A stretch of DNA of 15,490 nt from a virus (IMGVR_UViG_2693429774_000004:1-15490); one strand, 5' to 3'; counted from the stretch's first letter, positions 90 through 15,490 are shown. Numbers and translations are program-made. The notes: generated from the letters alone by a model not told the origin.

Positions 90-905
90 TCATCGCCATT
101 GCTCCCCAAATACAAAACCAATTTCAGCCAGTGCCTCGTCCATTTTTTCGATGAACTCCGGCACCATCTCGTCAAAATTCGCCATGTACTTTTCATCCCG
201 CTCAACCACGACATAATGCAGGCCTTCACGCTTCATACGCGGGTCATAGTTGGCAAAGTACCAGGCATCTTTTCGCGTCACCCACATGCTGTACTGCACC
301 TGGGCCATGTAAGCTGACTTTATGGCCTCGAAACCACCGAGCCGGAACTTCATGAAATCCCGGGAGGTAAACGGGCATTTCAGTTCAAGGCCATTGCCGT
401 CACTGCATAAACCATCGGGAGAGCAGGCGGTGCGCATACTTTCGTCGCGATAGATGATCGGGGATTCAATAACATTTACGCCGGAAGTGAACTCAAACAG
501 GGTTCTGGCGTCGTTCTCGTACTGTTTTCCCCAGGCCAGTGCTTTAGCGTTAACTTCCGGAGCCACACCGGTGCAAACCTCGGCAAGCAGGGTGTGGAAG
601 TAGGACATTTTCATGTCAGGCCACTTCTTTCCTGAGCGGGGCTTTGCTATCACGTTGTGAACTTCTGAAGCGGTGATGACGCCGAGCCGTAATTTGTGCC
701 ACGCATCATCCCCCTGTTCGACAGCTCTCACGTCGATCCCGGTAACGATATCCGTCTGATGCGTGAACGTGATGGACGTAACCACCGCGACATGTGTGTA
801 CTGTTCCGCTGGGCCTGCCAGGACAACTTCTGGTCCGGTAACGTGCTGAGTCCGGCCAAACTCCGCGACAAGTGGACCCAGCTCGAAATCAACCGGAACA
901 AGCAA
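90..905 (-). CDS. exoD: Lambda exonuclease (Exo/RedX, YqaJ family) homolog with a replaced N-terminus; possibly a pseudogene
   Basis: ORF-track protein residues about 55-271 ([31 protein letters not shown]...FVFGEQWR) match lambda Exo as I remember it almost residue for residue. The first ~54 codons have no Exo counterpart and are read antisense through the O remnant. Confidence 0.8.
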
Positions 906-980
906 CAGGCTGGCGTGACAGTCGGCAAACCAAAACTCGACCTGACAAACACTGACTGGATTTACGGGGTGGATCTATGA
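696..980 (+). pseudogene. C-terminal remnant of lambda-type replication initiator O; N-terminal DNA-binding domain and ori region absent
   Basis: Translation ends ...[44 protein letters not shown], the C-terminus of lambda O as I recall it. The stop overlaps the P start (ATGA at 977-980). O homology begins only near 745, directly abutting the exo homology on the other strand. Confidence 0.7.
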
Positions 981-1678
981 AAAACATCGCCGCACAGATG
1001 GTTAACTTTGACCGTGAGCAGATGCGTCGGATCGCCAACAACATGCCGGAACAGTACGACGAAAAGCCACAGGTACAGCAGGTAGCGCAGATCATCAACG
1101 GTGTGTTCAGCCAGTTACTGGCAACTTTCCCGGCGAGCCTGGCTAACCGTGACCAGAATGAACTGAACGAAATCCGCCGCCAGTGGGTGCTGGCTTTCCG
1201 GGAAAACGGGATCACCACAATGGAACAGGTTAACGCTGGAATGCGCGTAGCCCGTCGGCAGAATCGACCATTCCTGCCATCACCCGGGCAGTTTGTCGCC
1301 TGGTGCCGGGAAGAAGCATCCGTTACCGCCGGGCTGCCAAACGCCAGCGAGCTGGTTGATATGGTTTACGAGTATTGCCGGAAGCGCGGGCTGTATCCGG
1401 ATGCAGAGTCTTATCCGTGGAAATCAAACGCGCACTACTGGCTGGTTACCAACCTGTATCAGAACATGCGGGCCAATGCGTTGACTGACGCGGAATTACG
1501 GCGCAAGGCTGCCGATGAACTGTCCTGTATGACCGCACGAATTAACCGTGGTGAGGCTATACCTGAACCAGTAAAACAACTTCCTGTCATGGGCGGTAGA
1601 CCTCTAAATCGTGCACAGGCTCTGGCGAAGATCGCAGAAATCAAAGCTAAGTTTGGGCTGAAAGGAGCAAGGGTATGA
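977..1678 (+). CDS. Replication protein P (DnaB helicase loader), lambda gpP homolog, full length
   Basis: 233-aa ORF MKNIAAQMVNFDREQMRRIANNMPEQYDEKPQVQQVAQIINGVF...AKIAEIKAKFGLKGARV is near-identical to lambda P from memory. Start overlaps the O stop; stop overlaps the ren start. Confidence 0.9.
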   Translation: MKNIAAQMVNFDREQMRRIANNMPEQYDEKPQVQQVAQIINGVFSQLLATFPASLANRDQNELNEIRRQWVLAFRENGITTMEQVNAGMRVARRQNRPFLPSPGQFVAWCREEASVTAGLPNASELVDMVYEYCRKRGLYPDAESYPWKSNAHYWLVTNLYQNMRANALTDAELRRKAADELSCMTARINRGEAIPEPVKQLPVMGGRPLNRAQALAKIAEIKAKFGLKGARV

Positions 1679-1977
1679 CGGGCAAAGAGTCAATTATTCA
1701 TTACCTGGGGACTCATAAGAAATTCTGTGCGCAGGACGTTGCCGCGGTAACAGGCGCAACGGTAACCAGCATAAATCAGGCTGCGGCTAAAATGGCGCGG
1801 GCAGGAATCCTAGTCGTTGATGGTAAGGTCTGGCGAACGGTGTATTATCGGTTCGCTACCAGAGAAGAATGGGAAGGAAAGGTGAGCACGAATTTGATTT
1901 TTAAGGAGTGTCGCCAGAGTGCCGCGATGAAACGGGTATTGAGGGTATATAAAAGAACATCAATGGGTACACAATGA
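1675..1977 (+). CDS. Ren-like protein (lambda Ren homolog) with altered C-terminus
   Basis: MTGKESIIHYLGTH...VWRTVYYRFATREEWEGKVSTNLIFKECRQSAAMKRVL matches lambda Ren. The last ~12 residues differ because the AT-rich island starts near 1945. ATG overlaps the P stop (ATGA). Confidence 0.8.
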   Translation: MTGKESIIHYLGTHKKFCAQDVAAVTGATVTSINQAAAKMARAGILVVDGKVWRTVYYRFATREEWEGKVSTNLIFKECRQSAAMKRVLRVYKRTSMGTQ

Positions 1978-2044
1978 TGAAACAGGTGAGTTGAGTTCAA
2001 ACTGTAGTACAATTCTCTCCAGTTTGAACAGGAAAGAATATGCT

Positions 2045-2377
2045 ATGAACCCTTATATTTATCTTGGTGGTGCAATACTTGCAGAGGTCATTGGTACAAC
2101 CTTAATGAAGTTTTCAGAAGGTTTTACACGGTTATGGCCATCTGTTGGTACAATTATTTGTTATTGTGCATCATTCTGGTTATTAGCTCAGACGCTGGCT
2201 TATATTCCTACAGGGATTGCTTATGCTATCTGGTCAGGAGTCGGTATTGTCCTGATTAGTTTACTGTCATGGGGATTTTTCGGCCAACGGCTGGACCTGC
2301 CAGCCATTATAGGTATGATGTTGATTTGTGCCGGTGTGTTGGTTATTAATTTATTGTCACGAAGCACACCACATTAA
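2045..2377 (+). CDS. emrE: Small multidrug resistance (SMR) efflux transporter EmrE
   Basis: Internal Met of the 1991..2377 ORF gives the 110-aa protein MNPYIYLGGAILAEVIGTTLMKFSEGFTRLWPSVGT...LLSRSTPH, recognised as EmrE, with four hydrophobic helices and the conserved membrane-embedded Glu in helix 1. Confidence 0.95.
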   Translation: MNPYIYLGGAILAEVIGTTLMKFSEGFTRLWPSVGTIICYCASFWLLAQTLAYIPTGIAYAIWSGVGIVLISLLSWGFFGQRLDLPAIIGMMLICAGVLVINLLSRSTPH

Positions 2378-2406
2378 AATAATTTGTTTCTAAACGACTA
2401 AAATAT

Positions 2407-2450
2407 GGAGGCTCTTATATTTATATGAGCCTCGTTTTATGCTTTTTGTT
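2407..2450 (+). terminator. Probable intrinsic terminator downstream of emrE
   Basis: GGAGGCTC (2407-2414) pairs with GAGCCTC (2427-2433) around a 12-nt AT loop, followed by GTTTTATGCTTTTTGTT. Confidence 0.5.
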
Positions 2451-2631
2451 AATGTCTTTATTTTTTATGTATTCTTTTGTGCTTTCAAGATTATGGCGTA
2501 AGAAAATTGCAATACGATTATTGTTGTATATTCAAGATAATGTGACCTTAATTGTCTTTTTAAATAAAAATTAAACAAAAATTATATCCCACCACTAAGG
2601 TTTATAAAAGCATACGTTAGCAGGTGTCACC

Positions 2632-4158
2632 ATGAAAAAAGCCATAGCATATATGCGATTTTCATCACCAGGTCAGATGTCTGGTGACTCATTAAACCGA
2701 CAGAGAAGACTTATTGCTGAATGGTTAAAGGTAAATAGTGATTATTATCTTGATACCATAACATATGAAGATTTAGGATTAAGTGCATTCAAAGGAAAGC
2801 ATGCACAATCAGGAGCTTTTTCGGAATTTTTAGATGCTATAGAGCATGGTTATATATTGCCAGGAACTACATTGTTAGTTGAAAGTCTGGACAGACTTTC
2901 AAGAGAAAAAGTCGGTGAAGCGATTGAACGTCTGAAATTGATTTTGAATCACGGTATTGATGTTATAACTCTTTGCGACAATACAGTCTATAATATTGAC
3001 TCTTTGAATGAGCCATATTCATTAATAAAAGCCATACTTATAGCACAAAGGGCAAATGAAGAAAGCGAGATAAAGTCAAGTCGGGTTAAATTATCATGGA
3101 AGAAAAAACGGCAGGATGCAATGGAATCAGGTACGATTATGACGGCGTCTTGTCCGAGATGGCTCTCCTTAGATGACAAAAGAACGGCTTTTGTTCCAGA
3201 CCCCGACAGGGTGAAAACTATTGAGCTAATTTTTAAACTCAGGATGGAAAGGCGCTCATTGAATGCAATAGCCAAGTATTTAAATGATCATGCTGTAAAG
3301 AATTTCTCAGGAAAAGAAAGTGCATGGGGACCTTCTGTAATTGAAAAATTATTAGCGAATAAAGCTCTGATAGGTATATGCGTACCTTCATATCGTGCAA
3401 GAGGGAAAGGGATAAGTGAAATCGCTGGCTATTATCCCAGAGTTATATCAGATGATTTGTTTTACGCTGTACAGGAAATTCGGTTGGCACCTTTTGGTAT
3501 TAGCAATAGTAGCAAGAATCCTATGCTAATAAATCTACTTCGAACAGTTATGAAGTGTGAGGCTTGTGGTAATACCATGATTGTTCATGCGGTATCTGGA
3601 AGTTTGCATGGCTATTATGTTTGTCCGATGAGAAGATTACATCGATGTGACAGGCCATCAATAAAAAGAGATTTGGTTGATTATAATATCATTAATGAAT
3701 TGCTTTTTAATTGTAGCAAAATTCAACCAGTTGAAAACAAGAAAGATGCTAATGAAACTTTAGAGTTAAAAATTATTGAGCTTCAGATGAAAATTAATAA
3801 TTTAATCGTTGCATTGTCTGTCGCGCCTGAAGTTACCGCTATAGCAGAGAAAATAAGACTATTAGATAAGGAATTACGAAGGGCTTCGGTATCATTGAAA
3901 ACTTTGAAGAGTAAAGGTGTAAATTCATTCAGTGATTTTTATGCTATTGACTTAACCAGTAAAAATGGACGAGAGTTATGCCGTACACTTGCCTATAAAA
4001 CATTCGAAAAAATCATAATTAATACGGATAATAAAACCTGTGATATCTATTTTATGAATGGCATTGTTTTTAAACACTATCCTTTAATGAAAGTAATATC
4101 CGCCCAGCAGGCGATAAGTGCTCTCAAATATATGGTTGATGGTGAGATTTATTTCTAA
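2632..4158 (+). CDS. ybcK: Large serine recombinase (resolvase/invertase-type catalytic domain, recombinase domain, zinc ribbon, C-terminal coiled coil)
   Basis: 508-aa ORF. N-terminus AIAYMRFSSPGQ fits the serine-recombinase active-site motif (Y-x-R-x-S). Cys cluster CEACGNTM...YYVCPMRRLHRCD resembles the zinc ribbon of large serine recombinases. Lys/Glu-rich C-terminal segment. Low-GC coding. Confidence 0.88.
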   Translation: MKKAIAYMRFSSPGQMSGDSLNRQRRLIAEWLKVNSDYYLDTITYEDLGLSAFKGKHAQSGAFSEFLDAIEHGYILPGTTLLVESLDRLSREKVGEAIERLKLILNHGIDVITLCDNTVYNIDSLNEPYSLIKAILIAQRANEESEIKSSRVKLSWKKKRQDAMESGTIMTASCPRWLSLDDKRTAFVPDPDRVKTIELIFKLRMERRSLNAIAKYLNDHAVKNFSGKESAWGPSVIEKLLANKALIGICVPSYRARGKGISEIAGYYPRVISDDLFYAVQEIRLAPFGISNSSKNPMLINLLRTVMKCEACGNTMIVHAVSGSLHGYYVCPMRRLHRCDRPSIKRDLVDYNIINELLFNCSKIQPVENKKDANETLELKIIELQMKINNLIVALSVAPEVTAIAEKIRLLDKELRRASVSLKTLKSKGVNSFSDFYAIDLTSKNGRELCRTLAYKTFEKIIINTDNKTCDIYFMNGIVFKHYPLMKVISAQQAISALKYMVDGEIYF

Positions 4159-4356
4159 ATAATGATCTCGGATTTTAAGTTATGCTATGGTGATAAAGTG
4201 CAAGACAGAATTAATTATCTTTGACGAAACTTAATGGGTAATTACTTTGTTTGCTCCCACAAGCGAGTTTTGTACGGCTGTATTGGGGTAGTAAATGAGC
4301 TATACAATCTTAATCATTTGTTAGGTGAGAACTCTTGGTCGCAGATTCAAATACTG

Positions 4357-4406
4357 AAAATACGTGACAAATTATTATGAGCAAAATGGTGTATGTCACG
4401 TATTTT
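4357..4406. promoter_or_regulatory. Perfect 13-bp inverted repeat (AAAATACGTGACA / TGTCACGTATTTT) with 24-bp spacer in the ybcK-ybcL intergenic region
   Basis: Arms at 4357-4369 and 4394-4406 are exact reverse complements. Sits about 220 bp upstream of the ybcL start. Candidate operator or RNA stem-loop. Confidence 0.4.
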
Positions 4407-4622
4407 GAATGGTAGGTTAAAAAATAACACCGACTTTCGTAGGTATTACTAATAATAAAGCAGAGTTTTTAGATAGTATCAATGTGCTTTGTGTATATTG
4501 TGGCAAATAATTGGGTTGGGGGTACAATTGTGATTGCTTTTGCATAAACATTGCGCCTTTATGCATAATGAGATAAAGGAATATCAAATAAAATAACGAT
4601 AGGTCATAACAAAGAGGTTTTT

Positions 4623-5174
4623 ATGAAAACACTTATCGTTTCAACTGTATTGGCATTCATAACATTTTCTGCGCAGGCTGCAGCATTTCAGGTCACTAGT
4701 AATGAAATAAAAACAGGAGAGCAACTTACAACGTCTCATGTCTTTTCTGGATTTGGGTGTGAAGGTGGTAATACATCGCCCTCATTAACCTGGTCTGGTG
4801 TTCCTGAAGGTACCAAAAGCTTTGCCGTAACTGTATATGATCCAGATGCACCTACAGGCAGTGGTTGGTGGCATTGGACTGTTGTTAATATTCCAGCAAC
4901 AATAACATATTTGCCCGTTGATGCAGGGAGACGTGATGGAACAAAACTGCCGACTGGTGCTGTTCAAGGCCGAAATGATTTTGGCTATGCTGGGTTTGGT
5001 GGCGCATGTCCTCCTAAAGGAGATAAACCACATCATTACCAGTTTAAAGTATGGGCTCTAAAAACTGAAAAGATTCCTGTAGATTCTAACTCCAGCGGAG
5101 CGTTAGTTGGTTATATGCTTAATGCTAATAAAATCGCAACCGCTGAGATAACACCAGTTTATGAGATAAAGTAG
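4623..5174 (+). CDS. ybcL: Periplasmic PEBP/RKIP-family protein YbcL with signal peptide
   Basis: 183-aa ORF with N-terminal signal peptide (MKTLIVSTVLAFITFSAQAAA) and PEBP-like core (VTVYDPDAPTGSGWWHWTVVNIP...HHYQFKVWAL). Preceded by GAGG. Confidence 0.9.
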   Translation: MKTLIVSTVLAFITFSAQAAAFQVTSNEIKTGEQLTTSHVFSGFGCEGGNTSPSLTWSGVPEGTKSFAVTVYDPDAPTGSGWWHWTVVNIPATITYLPVDAGRRDGTKLPTGAVQGRNDFGYAGFGGACPPKGDKPHHYQFKVWALKTEKIPVDSNSSGALVGYMLNANKIATAEITPVYEIK

Positions 5175-5183
5175 GGTGAGAGT

Positions 5184-5981
5184 ATGCTGGCAAGAGGTAA
5201 GACTAACTTAAAGATCGAAGAAATACGGATGCATAAACATCATGAGATTCATAGGGTTAAGCCTCTTATGCCAGCTTTGTGTCGTATCCGTCAGGGAAAG
5301 AAAGTTATCAATTGGGAGACGCATACTTTAACTGTTGATAATAATCAAATAATATTATTTCCTTGTGGTTATGAATTTTATATTGAGAATTATCCTGAAG
5401 CAGGGCTTTATCTTGCAGAAATGCTTTACTTACCCATTGATTTAATTGAGAGTTTCCAAAAACTTTATACGGTAACTGATCAAATACGTAACAAAACAAG
5501 TTTCTTTTTACCTCAGAATCCTGAGTTAATATATTGTTGGGAGCAACTAAAAACATCTGTTTCCCGAGGCTTCTCAACTAAAATTCAGGAGCACTTAGCA
5601 ATGGGCGTTCTACTTTCGTTAGGAGTGAATCATGTTAATCATTTACTTTTATCATATAGTAAACAATCATTGATAAGTCGTTGTTATAACCTGCTGCTAT
5701 CCGAACCCGGCACAAAATGGACAGCAAACAAGGTTGCTCGATATCTCTACATTTCTGTTTCTACATTACATCGCCGTCTAGCAAGCGAGGGGGTAAGTTT
5801 CCAAAGTATACTGGACGATGTGAGGTTAAATAATGCGTTGTCTGCTATACAAACGACGGTAAAACCTATAAGCGAGATTGCCAGAGAAAATGGTTATAAG
5901 TGTCCTTCTCGTTTTACTGAAAGATTTCATAATCGTTTTAATATAACACCAAGAGAGATAAGAAAAGCTTCCAGAGAGTAA
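5184..5981 (+). CDS. ybcM: AraC/XylS-family transcriptional regulator
   Basis: 265-aa ORF with a C-terminal AraC-type double helix-turn-helix ([21 protein letters not shown]...[32 protein letters not shown]). Low-GC coding. Confidence 0.85.
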
Positions 5982-6045
5982 AAGTGTTTTAAGAAGGAGC
6001 AATTCTATCGATTTTGATTTTGGGAAATCAACACGGCATAATTAT

Positions 6046-6074
6046 GTCACCGGAGCCTGAACAACTCCGGTGAC
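6046..6074 (+). terminator. Stem-loop at the right boundary of the AT-rich island (possible weak terminator of ybcM)
   Basis: GTCACCGGAG (6046-6055) pairs perfectly with CTCCGGTGAC (6065-6074) around a 9-nt loop, followed by TTCTGCG, only a weak U-tract. Confidence 0.3.
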
Positions 6075-6097
6075 TTCTGCGCTAAACGGGGACGTTT

Positions 6098-6199
6098 ATG
6101 CGCACATACAATCCAAACTCTCTTCTCCCTTCACAGATGCAGAAATGCACCTGCAATTCTTTGCATCTAGCGTTTGACCTCTGCGGAGGTGAAGCGTGA
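6098..6199 (+). CDS. ylcH: Small 33-codon ORF upstream of and overlapping the ybcN start (possibly ylcH)
   Basis: ATG at 6098 to TGA at 6197-6199 ([33 protein letters not shown]). Stop overlaps the ybcN GTG start as GTGA. The name is from memory of a similarly sized K-12 ORF; coding status is uncertain. Confidence 0.3.
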
Positions 6200-6651
6200 A
6201 CCTCTCACAAGACGGCATCAAATTACATCGCGGCAACTTCACCGCTATCGGTCGGCAGATCCAGCCTTATCTGGAGGAGGGCAAATGCTTTCGCATGGTG
6301 CTTAAACCGTGGCGTGAGAAACGCAGTCTTTCCCAGAATGCACTCAGCCACATGTGGTACAGCGAAATCAGTGAATACCTCATCAGCAGGGGTAAAACGT
6401 TCGCCACTCCAGCTTGGGTAAAAGATGCTCTCAAACACACATATCTCGGTTATGAAACCAAAGACCTGGTTGATGTCGTAACCGGTGATATCACCACTAT
6501 CCAGTCGTTACGCCATACCTCCGATCTTGATACCGGAGAGATGTATGTCTTCCTGTGTAAGGTTGAAGCCTGGGCGGTGAATATTGGCTGCCACCTGACT
6601 ATTCCGCAGAGCTGCGAGTTCCAGCTGCTCCGCGACAAGCAGGAGGCGTAA
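6196..6651 (+). CDS. ybcN: NinB/Orf-family recombination protein (lambda NinB homolog)
   Basis: 151-aa ORF from GTG at 6196 with GGAGG 6 nt upstream. Central [16 protein letters not shown] region resembles the lambda NinB core. Stop overlaps the ninE ATG (TAATG). Confidence 0.85.
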
Positions 6652-6821
6652 TGGCTACACCGCTTATTCGTGTCATGAACGGACACATCTACAGAGTATC
6701 AAATCGTCGTAAGCGTAAGCCTGAGCTGAAGCCATCCGAAATACCAACACTGCTCGGATATACCGCTAGCCTGGTTGATAAAAAATGGTTGCGACTGGCA
6801 GCAAGGAGGAATCATGGCTGA
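6651..6821 (+). CDS. ninE: NinE-family small protein
   Basis: 56-codon ORF translated by hand ([56 protein letters not shown]). Coupled to ybcN upstream and overlaps ybcO downstream. Too short for the ORF track. Confidence 0.7.
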   Translation: MATPLIRVMNGHIYRVSNRRKRKPELKPSEIPTLLGYTASLVDKKWLRLAARRNHG

Positions 6822-7104
6822 TTTGAGAAAAGCAGCGCGTGGTCGGGAATGCCAGGTAAGAATCCCTGGCGTATGTAATGGCAATTCTGAAACGTCTGTA
6901 CTGGCACATATCCGGCTGGCTGGATTGTGCGGTACCGGTATCAAACCGCCAGACCTGATTGCCACCATTGCATGTTCTGCCTGCCACGACGAAATCGACC
7001 GCCGCACACATTTTGTCGATGCTGCATATGCAAAAGAATGCGCGCTGGAAGGTATGGCGAGAACACAGGTTATCTGGCTGAAAGAGGGGGTTATTAAGGC
7101 GTGA
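6814..7104 (+). CDS. ybcO: YbcO (DUF1364) putative zinc-dependent nuclease
   Basis: 96-aa protein from the internal Met of the 6775..7104 ORF ([29 protein letters not shown]...), with AGGAGGA 5-11 nt upstream. Contains paired Cys motifs. Stop overlaps the rusA GTG start. Confidence 0.85.
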
Positions 7105-7463
7105 ATACCTACAGTATCACATTACCCTGGCCTCCGAGCAATAATCGCTATTACCGCCATAATCGCGGGCGCACGCACGTCAGTGCAGAGGGGCAGGCAT
7201 ACCGCGATAACGTCGCCCGAATCATTAAAAGCGCAATGCTGGATATCGGCCTGGCTATGCCTGTGAAAATCCGCATTGAGTGCCACATGCCGGATCGCCG
7301 TCGCCGTGACCTGGATAATCTGCAAAAAGCCGCTTTTGACGCACTCACTAAAGCAGGTTTCTGGCTGGATGATGCTCAGGTCGTTGATTACCGCGTTGTG
7401 AAGATGCCTGTTACCAAAGGTGGGAGGCTGGAACTGACCATCACCGAAATGGGGAATGAATGA
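7101..7463 (+). CDS. rusA: Holliday junction resolvase RusA
   Basis: 120-aa protein [37 protein letters not shown]...[10 protein letters not shown], recognised as RusA. GTG start. Confidence 0.92.
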
Positions 7464-7600
7464 TGTTTGAGTTTAATATAGCAGAACTTCTTCGCCACCG
7501 CTGGGGGCGTCTGCGCTTATATCGTTTCCCCGGTTCTGTTTTGACCGATTACCGAATACTGAAGAATTACGCCAAAACCCTGACAGGAGCAGGAGTATGA
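7460..7600 (+). CDS. ylcG: Small nin-region protein (YlcG-like)
   Basis: 46-codon ORF ([46 protein letters not shown]). ATG overlaps the rusA stop (ATGATG). Hand translated. Confidence 0.55.
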
Positions 7601-8094: not shown

Positions 8095-8262
8095 TTAAAA
8101 ATGGGGCGTTGAAACGCCCCCAAAAATAAAGGGTAATATATAACAGAAGGTTTGTATAGTTAGAAGCAAGGTTGTGCTTCTAAAGGAAGTGGCTTGAGGG
8201 AGCCACTTATATGTTGGGGAGGCAAAGCCTCCCACAACATATCTTTTAGTAATCAAATTAGA
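8095..8262 (-). ncRNA. ipeX: Candidate small RNA from the nmpC 3' region (possibly IpeX-like), ending at a minus-strand intrinsic terminator
   Basis: On the minus strand the 8103-8120 hairpin is followed by ATTTTTAATAAC, a canonical terminator about 140-160 nt past the nmpC stop. I recall an sRNA named IpeX mapping beside nmpC in DLP12, but I cannot confirm its exact coordinates or strand from memory. Confidence 0.3.
8103..8247 (+). promoter_or_regulatory. Cluster of four stem-loops between quuD and nmpC: candidate late-promoter leader/qut region with terminator
   Basis: Stems at 8103-8120 (GGGGCGTT/AACGCCCC), 8162-8181 (AGAAGCA/TGCTTCT), 8187-8208 (AAGTGGCT/AGCCACTT) and 8211-8240 (ATGTTGGGGAGGC/GCCTCCCACAACAT, one bulge). 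The last is followed by ATCTTTTAG on the plus strand. Confidence 0.4.
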
Positions 8263-9340
8263 ACTGGTAAACCATACCTACAGCAACGATATCATCGGTA
8301 GCAACGCCAGATGCTTTCGTGAAATCGCTCTTATCAATCAGGTTGATTTTGTAGTCAACAAAAGTGGACATATTTTTGTTGAAGTAATAGGTTGCACCTA
8401 CATCAACATATTCAACCAGGTCCTGATCACCCCAAACACCCAAGTCTTTTCCTTTAGAATGCAGGTAAGCAACGGATGGACGCAGGCCGAAGTCGAACTG
8501 ATATTGTGCAACAGCTTCGAAGTTTTGTGCTTTGTTGGCAATATGGTTATTACCAAAAACAGTCATGTTCTGGGTTTCAGAATAGGTGGTGGCCAGATAG
8601 ATGTTGTTCGCATCATATTTCAGACCAGCTGCCCATACTTCAGCATTTTGACCAGAAGCATTCAGACCGTTGTTACCGTAGATAACCTGATTATTAGTGC
8701 GATCAGATTTAGCATAGGTTGCACCTACACCGAATCCTTCATACTCATAAGTAGTGGAGAAACCGAAACCATCACCATTAGCTTCAGTTACGTCAGTGCG
8801 GTCATTTTTACCCTGATACTGAGCAGCAAAGTTCAGACCATCAACCAGACCAAAGAAGTCGTTGTTACGATAAGTTGCAACACCAGTGGTGCGACCAGTC
8901 ATGAACACATCTGTTTGAGTCCAAGTGTCACCACCGAATTCTGGCAGGACGTCAGTCCACGCACCGATGTCGTATGCTACACCGTAGTTACGGCCGTAAT
9001 CGATGGAGCCGTAGTCACCGAATTTCAGGCCAGCGAAGGCAAGACGGGTTTTATCTTTGGAGGAACCTTGAGATTCAGCGCGGTTGCCTTTGAATTCATA
9101 TTCCCACTGACCGAAACCAGTCAGTTGATCGTTGATTTGGGTTTCACCTTTGAAGCCAAGACGGGCATAAGTAGTATCACCATCATCTGCATCATTAGAG
9201 GAGAAGTAGTGCTTAGCATTAACTTTCCCGTACAGATCCAGCTTGTTACTGTCTTTATTATAAATTTCAGCTGCCTGAGCAGACATCGCCATCAGTACTG
9301 ATGCAGCTACAGCAGAAATTGCCACTGTTAATTTTTTCAT
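8258..9340 (-). CDS. nmpC: Outer membrane general porin NmpC (OmpD/OmpC family), apparently intact
   Basis: 360-aa ORF with signal peptide [23 protein letters not shown], porin-typical Gly/Tyr/Asp-rich beta-strand composition and the conserved C-terminal motif VGMVYQF. Confidence 0.92.
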
Positions 9341-9928
9341 CGTGAGCCCTTTTTTTTGAACTATTATTAAAAAATGATGTCACTGCGCGATAAATATTCA
9401 TCTAATCAATGTGATTATTTCAAGATGTAAGTTTTAGTTTCTCATTTAATTTGTGAAGTAGATCTCTATTTTTATCTGAACTTTTTCTATCGAAACCTAT
9501 TTATGGCTCTTATTTGAACAAAAATAAACCTATTAGCTAATTTATATTAATGGCTGTTATTTATGGGGGGTCTATAATTCGATGGTTTAATTTAAATTAA
9601 CTAAAAATAACGCCGGAAATTATTTATTGGTTATTTGTTGAGGTTTTCTTATGTATTTGTGGTGGTGTTTTGAACACTCGGTAGCATTCTCATAAATATC
9701 ATTCAGTGGTTTACGTACGTAAAAAATTGGTTATGCTGTTAAGAGTGGTTACTTCGTCACACAGCTTAAACCCGCCGTCGAGCTGGTTTTTCCATTTTTT
9801 GAGTCTCGATATTAGCTGATAACTCAATACCTGAGTTATTCACTGACTCCGAGTCTGTTACGTTTCTGCTTTTTTGCGATACGTTGTATTCCCTCAATTT
9901 ACACCCGCTTTGTCTGCGAGGTGGGGTT

Positions 9929-14669: not shown

Positions 14670-14754
14670 ATTCGTAATGATTACCTAAATACGTTATTCT
14701 TTTGTTAAAAAAGTGATTTTGCTATAGGTAGGGAGTATGTTCTTGGATTAAGAA

Positions 14755-14786
14755 TAAAAAATCGCCATGAAAGAGCTTCATGGCGA
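14755..14786 (-). terminator. Perfect 10-bp stem-loop with adjacent A6/T6 tract, terminator-like in minus orientation
   Basis: TCGCCATGAA (14762-14771) pairs with TTCATGGCGA (14777-14786) around a 5-nt loop. AAAAAA lies immediately upstream on the plus strand, which is a U-tract after the hairpin on the minus strand. Confidence 0.3.
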
Positions 14787-15418
14787 GTACATAAACGTAC
14801 AAAATGTGATGAAAGTAGAGTGGCGTAAGCCACTATATTAAGATATGACAATAGCGAAGAAAAGTAAATAACATTTCATGGACGTTTAATTGTTAATTAT
14901 AAAAACTAGAGTGCCCGATATTGTTTATCTTGCTTTAAAATAATGTACTCAAACCAAATTTTTGAGCTAAAAGCTCAAATAATATAAATGCAATAATAAT
15001 GTTTAATAAGACAATTAGCTTGCTTTGTATTTTCATTTCGGAATACTGTTAAGTAACTTTGATGACCCTAACAATAGATCGGAATTTTCTTAGAGTCAAT
15101 GGTCACTGTTTTTGCTTGCAAAGCAAATGTTTTGGTGGTTATAAGTTGTCTTAATATAGTCACGCATGCAACTTGTTCCATGCGGAGATTAAAGATTGGA
15201 ATATAACGCGAAGATGGAATTAAATTACATTTGCAATAATCAATTTATTATTACTCAATAATTACCGATATTATTATTGTAAATTAATCATTAGAGTGCA
15301 AAAAGAAATGTAACGGCAAAATAAGAGGACGATAGCTGAGAAAAAAGCGTGCTTTCCCAATCTGGGGCAAATCACGTCTGAATGACACCTGAAAACAGGT
15401 GGTAGCCTCAAGAAGGCT

Positions 15419-15490
15419 GGTGATGCTGCCAACTTACTGATTTAGTGTATGATGGTGTTTTTGAGGTGCTCCAGTGGCTTCTGTTTCTAT
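15419..15490 (+). mobile_element. IS1 left end (terminal inverted repeat and start of insA), truncated by the window edge
   Basis: GGTGATGCTGCCAACTTACTGATTTAGTGTATGATGGTGTTTTTGAGGTGCTCCAGTGGCTTCTGTTTCTAT matches the IS1 terminus as I remember it. insA appears to start at the GTG at 15474 (V/M-A-S-V-S-I...). Confidence 0.85.

Follow-up and report, generated by a model that had tools for sequence, protein, structure and literature searches.

The DNA considered here is a stretch of 15,490 nucleotides from a virus (IMGVR_UViG_2693429774_000004:1-15490), which as a whole is called the window below, and our subject is the AT-rich island at positions 1942–6012, between ren and the ninB-type gene ybcN of a lambdoid prophage. 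The island carries emrE, ylcJ, ybcK, ybcL and ybcM, and it is very probably the known moron region of a DLP12-type prophage, assembled stepwise as a mosaic and composed of host-fitness genes that are transcribed independently. The locus as such is already known: it belongs to the textbook annotation of Escherichia coli K-12, and EmrE has been described before among the accessory genes of temperate lambda-like coliphages (PMC6969025).

The gene order of the window is that of a cryptic lambdoid prophage of E. coli, of the DLP12 type. In the closest RefSeq record, this order runs from a replication protein, P, ren, emrE, ylcJ, ybcK, ybcL, ybcM, a 33-amino-acid open reading frame (ORF) and ybcN to ninE, ybcO, rusA, ylcG, quuD, a porin gene, essD, rrrD, rzpD, iss/bor, nohD and a truncated terminase gene. 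E. coli chromosomes match the window at up to 99.7% identity across 95% of its length. In addition, the interval 1940–6045 is present at 99.7% identity in E. coli K-12 MG1655 and BL21, and annotated E. coli loci at 99.7% identity read intD ... ren-emrE-ylcJ-ybcK-ybcL-ybcM-ybcN-ninE-ybcO-rusA. The island is also found at 100% identity in deposited phage genomes, as in the phage record PhiR70_1.

A sequence-only reading of the window had proposed an AT-rich island between ren and a ninB-type gene, and the base composition bore this out. GC content drops from 0.53 (1–1941) to 0.361 (1942–6012) and returns to 0.506 (6013–7600), and the suggested check of codon usage likewise gave a non-uniform picture, the GC content at third codon positions (GC3) being 0.26–0.33 in emrE, ylcJ, ybcK, ybcL and ybcM versus 0.44–0.68 in P, ybcN, ybcO and rusA. 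A base composition foreign to the phage backbone is supported by these values. The four genes that had been named (an SMR efflux pump, a large serine recombinase, a secreted PEBP-family protein and an AraC-family regulator) were all recovered with Pfam; only their number fell short, as a fifth small gene, ylcJ, had been missed. The ∼110-amino-acid product of emrE matches the SMR family over its full length, and an identical protein is named EmrE in RefSeq. YbcL starts with the signal-like N-terminus MKTLIVSTVLAFITFSAQAAA and is a predicted secreted PEBP, its signal peptide having been judged by eye.

The cargo slot between ren and ybcN

The edges of the island were set by blastn breakpoints against eight loci with other cargo. 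The left edge, at 1941/1950, is located within the final ∼11 codons of ren, as seen with blastn and in an alignment with five other lambdoid phages, and after window position 1941 all six aligned phages diverge completely, each from every other. On the right, homology returns at 6012/6013 in all eight comparators. The proposed comparison with related phages lacking the island thus defined both boundaries: the left one had been placed at about 1945, where homology indeed ends, and the right one, placed at about 6045, was near but is actually found about 30 bp earlier. The direct repeats that were to be sought at 1930–1960 versus 6030–6060 do not flank the island.

Between the same flanks, related phages carry other genes or just a terminator. 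In the lambda-like phage ev243 the slot consists of a tR2-type terminator alone, with ninB directly after it, and lambda-like phages have a ∼70-bp spacer with tR2 at this position. The slot of PhiR26_1 is occupied by PD-lambda-1 (as annotated), Rha and a small gene, that of PhiR30_1 by an acyltransferase and a lipoprotein, that of PhiR5_1 by small ORFs, Rha and a 169-amino-acid gene, and that of the FDAARGOS_1266 prophage by an inverse autotransporter and an alpha/beta hydrolase. Perceval, 4A7 and LF82 carry emrE-ylcJ-ybcK together with an alpha/beta hydrolase, while the O157:H7 prophage at icd has emrE-ylcJ-ybcK alone. Furthermore, one variant (L083 and its relatives in IMG/VR) encodes a 309-amino-acid BstA homologue between ybcK and the nin joint (PADLOC, 3.6e-121).

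From this comparison, the junction between ren and ylcH-ybcN appears to be a slot with fixed edges for morons or other accessory genes, which agrees with the earlier view of the island as a moron cluster. The earlier wording that the island replaces the ren-ninB interval is correct in that the cargo lies in this interval, but it is loose, since lambda-like phages have just the short tR2 spacer there. In this lineage the slot also hosts the anti-phage systems BstA and PD-lambda-1. A PADLOC scan of EmrE, YbcK, YbcL and YbcM gave no match to a defence system. We assign the gene downstream of the island as the YbcN allele of NinB, outside the island; its Pfam NinB score is under the family cut-off.

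Modules of the island and the copy beside fliE

Judging from the distribution of the individual genes, the island combines at least three modules, each with a history of its own, into a mosaic and is not one insertion. We surveyed 80 IMG/VR loci encoding YbcK at 97–100% identity. Upstream of ybcK, emrE was present in 78 of these 80 loci, namely in all 78 whose contigs reach that far, and ren preceded emrE wherever the contig extended far enough. The trio emrE-ylcJ-ybcK was constant and the cargo past ybcK was variable, with at least 12 values for the distance from ybcK to the joint and at least 10 different contents; the form with ybcLM was the commonest (27–28 loci). The block 901–4199 is common to the Perceval, Turner, E2 and O157 loci. 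Past the ybcK stop codon, every non-window variant has the same tail of 124 bp, after which mid-rha sequence follows that is homologous to PhiR5_1 from L003:3050 onward. This joint at stop+124 appears to represent one ancestral illegitimate event, by which the left part of a Rha-type cargo was replaced. The minimal O157 form derives from a deletion, and one other form from an IS2 insertion.

Two further explanations for the variable content were tried and rejected. A recombination hot-spot ∼70–85 bp past the ybcK stop codon, where the O157 and window sequences break, was dismissed because the 80-locus set mostly shares the longer tail, and integron-like cassette capture was dismissed because all non-window variants share the single joint at stop+124 in rha. 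Other variants encode uncharacterised proteins of 118, 169 and 260 amino acids downstream of ybcK, which have no Pfam match.

A second line of evidence comes from the E. coli chromosome. In the largest E. coli class, which comprises about 2,310 of 5,426 complete genomes, the best match is 90–95% identical, and the listed members of this class, including the examined OV24, have emrE-ybcL-ybcM without ybcK. In OV24, this cluster of ∼2.0 kb adjoins fliE (L009:8001-10154) and is ∼90–92% identical to the island, with homology to window positions 1968–2384 and 4468–6198. At its end it contains ∼190 bp of the phage nin joint, with promoter, hairpin and ylcH, and it is flanked by insertion sequence (IS) elements and truncated genes. 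The fliE-adjacent emrE-ybcL-ybcM probably derives from the same slot in an old prophage, which would make this widespread chromosomal cluster a relic that lacks the recombinase. It is highly improbable that a phage captured the three genes from beside fliE, so that they would come from the host rather than circulate among phages. Such a capture would suit the fixed place of the cluster in so large a class of genomes, but the OV24 copy runs into the nin joint and has relic-like surroundings, and the cluster is AT-rich like the island and hence not native E. coli DNA. Compared with the fliE copy, positions 2386–4467 of the window form an indel that includes the emrE terminator, ylcJ, ybcK and a 268-bp spacer, and the 6-bp AATAAT is the sole sequence common to its junctions.

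On the moron-region reading, the island would occupy a cargo slot whose left boundary is the 3′ end of ren and whose right boundary is the conserved promoter and hairpin joint before ylcH-ybcN. It would have been built stepwise by ordinary lambdoid mosaic recombination rather than by one insertion, with homologous exchange acting on the conserved flanks and illegitimate joints forming in the interior, and its modules would be emrE, ylcJ-ybcK, the 268-bp spacer and the ybcLM operon.

The recombinase YbcK

The protein comparisons indicate that YbcK is an intact large serine recombinase of the phage-integrase type, under strong purifying selection. Pfam recognised its Resolvase (5e-19), Recombinase (2e-14) and Zn_ribbon_recom (8e-8) domains. 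Residues Y7, R9, S11, Q15, D87, R88 and R91 are invariant in 10 YbcK homologues, down to 29% identity, and the four zinc-binding Cys residues are likewise invariant among homologues. While a PDB search with the single YbcK sequence returned nothing at 1e-5 and a profile was required, the family profile aligned to the C-terminal domain of the A118 integrase (4KIS) at residues 188–475 and matched 4KIS and 9DXH over residues 141–475, as well as SPbeta SprA. YbcK was intact in 84 of 85 loci, and the median ratio of nonsynonymous to synonymous substitution rates (dN/dS) was 0.08 across 52 distinct alleles. The sequence-only reading had offered, as an alternative to a moron cluster, the remnant of a second mobile element. 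This does not agree with an intact recombinase under purifying selection and with the lack of att-like or repeat termini, and it is also opposed by edges that are common to recombinase-free cargo and by the presence of the island in deposited phage genomes, among them isolated temperate coliphages with its emrE-ybcK part (PMC6969025).

A mobile unit of another kind was weighed as well, in which the island or its emrE-ylcJ-ybcK core would be a small element, inserted site-specifically by YbcK and perhaps still mobile among phages. We regard this as very unlikely. The complete catalytic and zinc-ribbon residues, the purifying selection and the constant association of the three genes would fit such an element, as would the positions of several relatives. 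Specifically, in Atlantibacter, Erwinia and Yersinia, homologues with 50–59% identity are found where a prophage ends next to host genes, the Atlantibacter one 540 bp away from the 3′ end of ssrA and the Erwinia one adjoining lepA, and these positions are those of true integrases. Moreover, the metagenomic lambdoid contig L018 (L018:7652-10831) has a homologue of 59% identity in its nin region, where a 2,980-bp block of large serine recombinase (LSR), KGG and DinI genes looks inserted between ∼200-bp direct repeats. These repeats represent the 5′ end of a DUF1367 nin gene and are just 86% identical, and the block could be either an insertion or a recombination scar. A SIR2-domain gene is located upstream in the same region of L018.

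The island itself gives a different picture. A search for direct and inverted repeats at the island edges and a local alignment of the left end with the right ends of the ybcK module, compared with shuffled sequences, gave no att-like repeats above chance at 1942, at stop+124 or at 6012, a negative that does not amount to proof, the sites of this family being degenerate. The slot has identical edges when it holds recombinase-free cargo. In all non-window variants, the right end of the trio is the single stop+124 joint in rha, a replacement typical of illegitimate recombination. Neither the 85 loci nor the E. coli search yielded a ybcK away from ren-emrE, apart from cases cut by an IS element, and emrE-ybcLM occurs without ybcK. 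The view that YbcK moved the island is unsupported by these comparisons.

Conceivably, YbcK could serve the phage itself as a working second integrase or other recombinase, in which case ybcK would be a gene of phage function and not cargo. The low dN/dS and the near-constant intactness of the gene would be expected under this idea, and among isolated temperate coliphages ybcK is carried by, for example, Perceval and 4A7 (PMC6969025). In the nin region of a lambdoid Pantoea prophage, a 42%-identical homologue occupies the same place, between replication genes and Q, YbcK matches PHROG 95 'integrase' (4.5e-120), and the ∼124-bp segment past the stop codon travels with the gene. Nonetheless, we judge this role unlikely, as phages with ybcK also have a tyrosine integrase and an excisionase, most lambdoids are without ybcK, and its GC3 of 0.28 fits the cargo, unlike the backbone. 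Also, no E. coli prophage was found with ybcK at a host junction; in O157, C325 and CE10, the gene is at internal positions or IS cuts. On this ground, the idea that YbcK integrates the prophage in E. coli was rejected.

We see a small chance that YbcK is active and has been retained by selection in the early-right operon, in lambdoid phages equipped with a tyrosine integrase as well, and acts on a so-far unseen site. If this were true, it could provide a second integration route, or it could move emrE-ylcJ-ybcK or neighbouring cargo between phage genomes, and the 2,980-bp block of L018 would be one such event. An uncharacterised y-gene of K-12 that encodes a fully intact integrase-type recombinase makes a cheap and well-defined target for bench work.

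Transcription units, the surrounding prophage and known systems

The island had been credited with two terminator-like hairpins of its own. The first of these, at 2407–2450, was correctly recognised: its stem at 2408–2433 (−13.6 kcal/mol, z = −3.1; Fold) is followed by GUUUUAUGCUUUUUGUU, and 2408–2450 has the features of a canonical intrinsic terminator for emrE, past the end of this gene. The second, at 6046–6074, is real, but it is not a terminator of the island, as it has no U-tract and belongs to the backbone, where it is conserved across cargo types. Among the collected variants, changes in the 5′ arm of this joint hairpin are mostly C-to-T and retain G·U pairs, which hints at a structure at the RNA level. 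The dyad TTGAT-N8-ATCAA of the same joint has conserved arms and a variable centre, and the record of phage 82 (X92588) annotates the joint as a putative promoter and 'possible regulator-binding site'. In PhiR26_1, a second copy of the joint with 80% identity is located between two cargo modules (L005:3572-3726). The 268-bp spacer, designated segB, contains a perfect 13-nt inverted repeat (4357–4369 / 4394–4406) with a 24-nt centre and the arms AAAATACGTGACA...TGTCACGTATTTT (−18.7 kcal/mol, z = −5.3; Fold). This repeat may serve as a terminator in both directions or as a binding site for a protein; segB occurs neither at the fliE locus nor in other ybcK variants. When the whole window was scanned with Rfam, no RNA family appeared inside the island.

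The promoter candidates for ybcK and ybcLM coincide with published promoters from genomic SELEX (systematic evolution of ligands by exponential enrichment), a study that located sigma-70 promoters, and binding by H-NS, in the spacers between emrE and ybcK and between ybcK and ybcL (PMC3946193). In addition, a Rho- and NusG-dependent terminator was described in the ybcK leader (PMC4150792). YbcM was shown by chromatin immunoprecipitation with exonuclease treatment (ChIP-exo) to bind upstream of ybcLM, and deletion of ybcM lowers survival of H2O2 (PMC8464067). YbcL is a periplasmic RKIP homologue, of which the allele of uropathogenic E. coli (UPEC) suppresses neutrophil migration (PMC4810123).

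Together with this literature, the predicted signals suggest that the island consists of host-fitness genes carried by the prophage, whose transcription would not depend on the phage programme. The emrE unit would end at its own intrinsic terminator, the leader of ybcK would contain a sigma-70 promoter as well as a Rho-dependent terminator, and ybcLM would be directed by its own sigma-70 promoter and autoregulated by YbcM, while H-NS would bind the AT-rich DNA of the island. The products are a cationic-drug exporter (EmrE), a stress-linked regulator (YbcM) and a periplasmic PEBP (YbcL). Since cI, pR and N are lost upstream, the island should be expressible here solely from its own promoters.

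Several observations weigh against this account of the island. For expression and fitness, the account draws on what has been published for K-12, where the locus is 99.7% identical. No convincing promoter for emrE was found in silico, and the promoter scan overall was at shuffle level (18 sites versus 15.7 expected). The hot-spot is displayed for just one lineage, because most of the alternative cargoes were found in E. coli phages that share one type of backbone. Positions 2386–4467 may be an insertion into emrE-ybcLM or may have been deleted from emrE-ybcK-ybcLM, just the 6-bp AATAAT being present at both junctions. Lastly, a purely passenger view of YbcK is incomplete, because strong purifying selection implies a function.

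Features of the island and its flanks in window coordinates
Feature	Position	Strand	Description
ren	1675–1977	+	Ren-like, PHROG 142, 2e-41
Last ∼11 codons of ren, island-linked allele	1942–1977	+	Six aligned phages alike to 1941, unrelated beyond
AT-rich cargo island	1942–6012	.	Comparative breakpoints and GC 0.361
emrE module	1942–2385	+	Leader with hairpin, then emrE
emrE leader hairpin	1995–2029	+	13-bp stem, −13.4 kcal/mol
emrE	2045–2377	+	Pfam PF00893 Multi_Drug_Res, 2e-35, residues 3–94; PHROG 1395 QacE, 4e-58
ybcK module	2386–4199	+	ylcJ, ybcK leader, ybcK
emrE intrinsic terminator (putative)	2408–2450	+	Stem-loop 2408–2433 and U-rich tail
ylcJ	2425–2574	+	Pfam YlcJ, 2e-35; 49 amino acids, hydrophobic
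Predicted sigma-70 promoter, ybcK leader	2542–2570	+	GTGACC-17-TAAAAA
ybcK	2632–4158	+	Pfam Resolvase, Recombinase and Zn_ribbon_recom; 508 amino acids
Spacer segB	4200–4467	.	268 bp; specific to the arrangement of ybcK with ybcLM
ybcLM module	4468–6012	+	Promoter, ybcL, ybcM; 89.5% identical to the fliE-adjacent chromosomal copy
Predicted ybcLM promoter	4500–4528	+	GTGGCA-17-TACAAT; also picked up by the promoter scan
ybcL	4623–5174	+	Pfam PF01161 PBP/PEBP, 7e-42
ybcM	5184–5981	+	AraC family; Pfam HTH_18, 9.5e-17, residues 185–261
Conserved backbone joint	6013–6198	+	Found on the right-hand side of all cargo types; outside the island
Joint promoter	6014–6042	+	TTGATT-17-CATAAT; dyad TTGAT-N8-ATCAA overlaps the −35
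Joint hairpin	6046–6074	+	10-bp stem, −18.3 kcal/mol, z = −5.2; no U-tract
ylcH	6098–6199	+	Within the conserved joint
ybcN	6196–6651	+	PHROG 72 NinB/Orf, 6e-52; first backbone gene past the island

The prophage of the window is a defective relic, because of a deletion between exo and O and the loss of head and tail genes. Compared with the full-length relative PhiR70_1, 5.9 kb are gone between exo and O, with a deletion joint at 743/744, which takes out bet, gam, kil, cI, cro, cII and the 5′ part of O. The morphogenesis genes are gone after 13134, past the start of the large terminase gene. Elsewhere in the prophage, an uninterrupted OmpC/NmpC-type porin gene (8258–9340, minus strand) is located between quuD and essD, with a non-coding stretch of 30% GC upstream of it (9340–9800), and represents another moron-like unit; in K-12 this gene is interrupted by IS5. 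A full-length Rfam match to IS009 (RF02111; 14431–14629, plus strand, 227.9 bits, E = 2e-56) overlaps the 3′ part of the tail-fibre-assembly gene. Following that gene, ∼800 bp of ∼31% GC (14670–15470) contain no long ORF, and in the closest genome this stretch extends to an IS1 copy that starts at the window end.

Among known systems, the large serine integrases of the A118/LI integrase, SPbeta SprA, phiC31 and Bxb1 type share with YbcK the domain order resolvase, recombinase and zinc ribbon, and YbcK keeps the Ser nucleophile and the Arg and Asp residues. It differs from them in that ybcK is internal to a prophage with a tyrosine integrase, and attP, attL and attR were not identified. The slot resembles the defence and accessory hot-spots of P2 and P4 (PMC9122126) in its fixed flanks and interchangeable content, but it is situated in the early-right operon of a lambdoid phage, and the island proteins of the window have no PADLOC match. 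The phage moron concept (Juhala et al. 2000; reviewed in PMC3594210) applies to the island in that extra transcription units of deviant base composition lie between conserved genes and are absent in close relatives. Promoters and terminators of their own would be a further point of agreement, for which the island offers a convincing emrE terminator and predicted ybcK and ybcLM promoters that correspond to published ones (PMC3946193). In contrast to a single promoter-gene-terminator cassette, the island is a multi-gene mosaic that includes a recombinase gene. The closest counterpart is DLP12 of K-12 (renD-emrE-ylcJ-ybcK-ybcL-ybcM-ylcH-ybcN), which has the same genes in the same order at 99.7% identity over 1940–6045, and in which the downstream genes ninE-ybcO-rusA-ylcG-quuD-porin-essD-rrrD-rzpD-bor are likewise the same. 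The two differ in that P and ren are intact in the window, whereas K-12 has a truncated P and an IS3 in ren, and in that the window has an uninterrupted porin gene and deletions of its own at exo–O (743/744) and in the morphogenesis genes.

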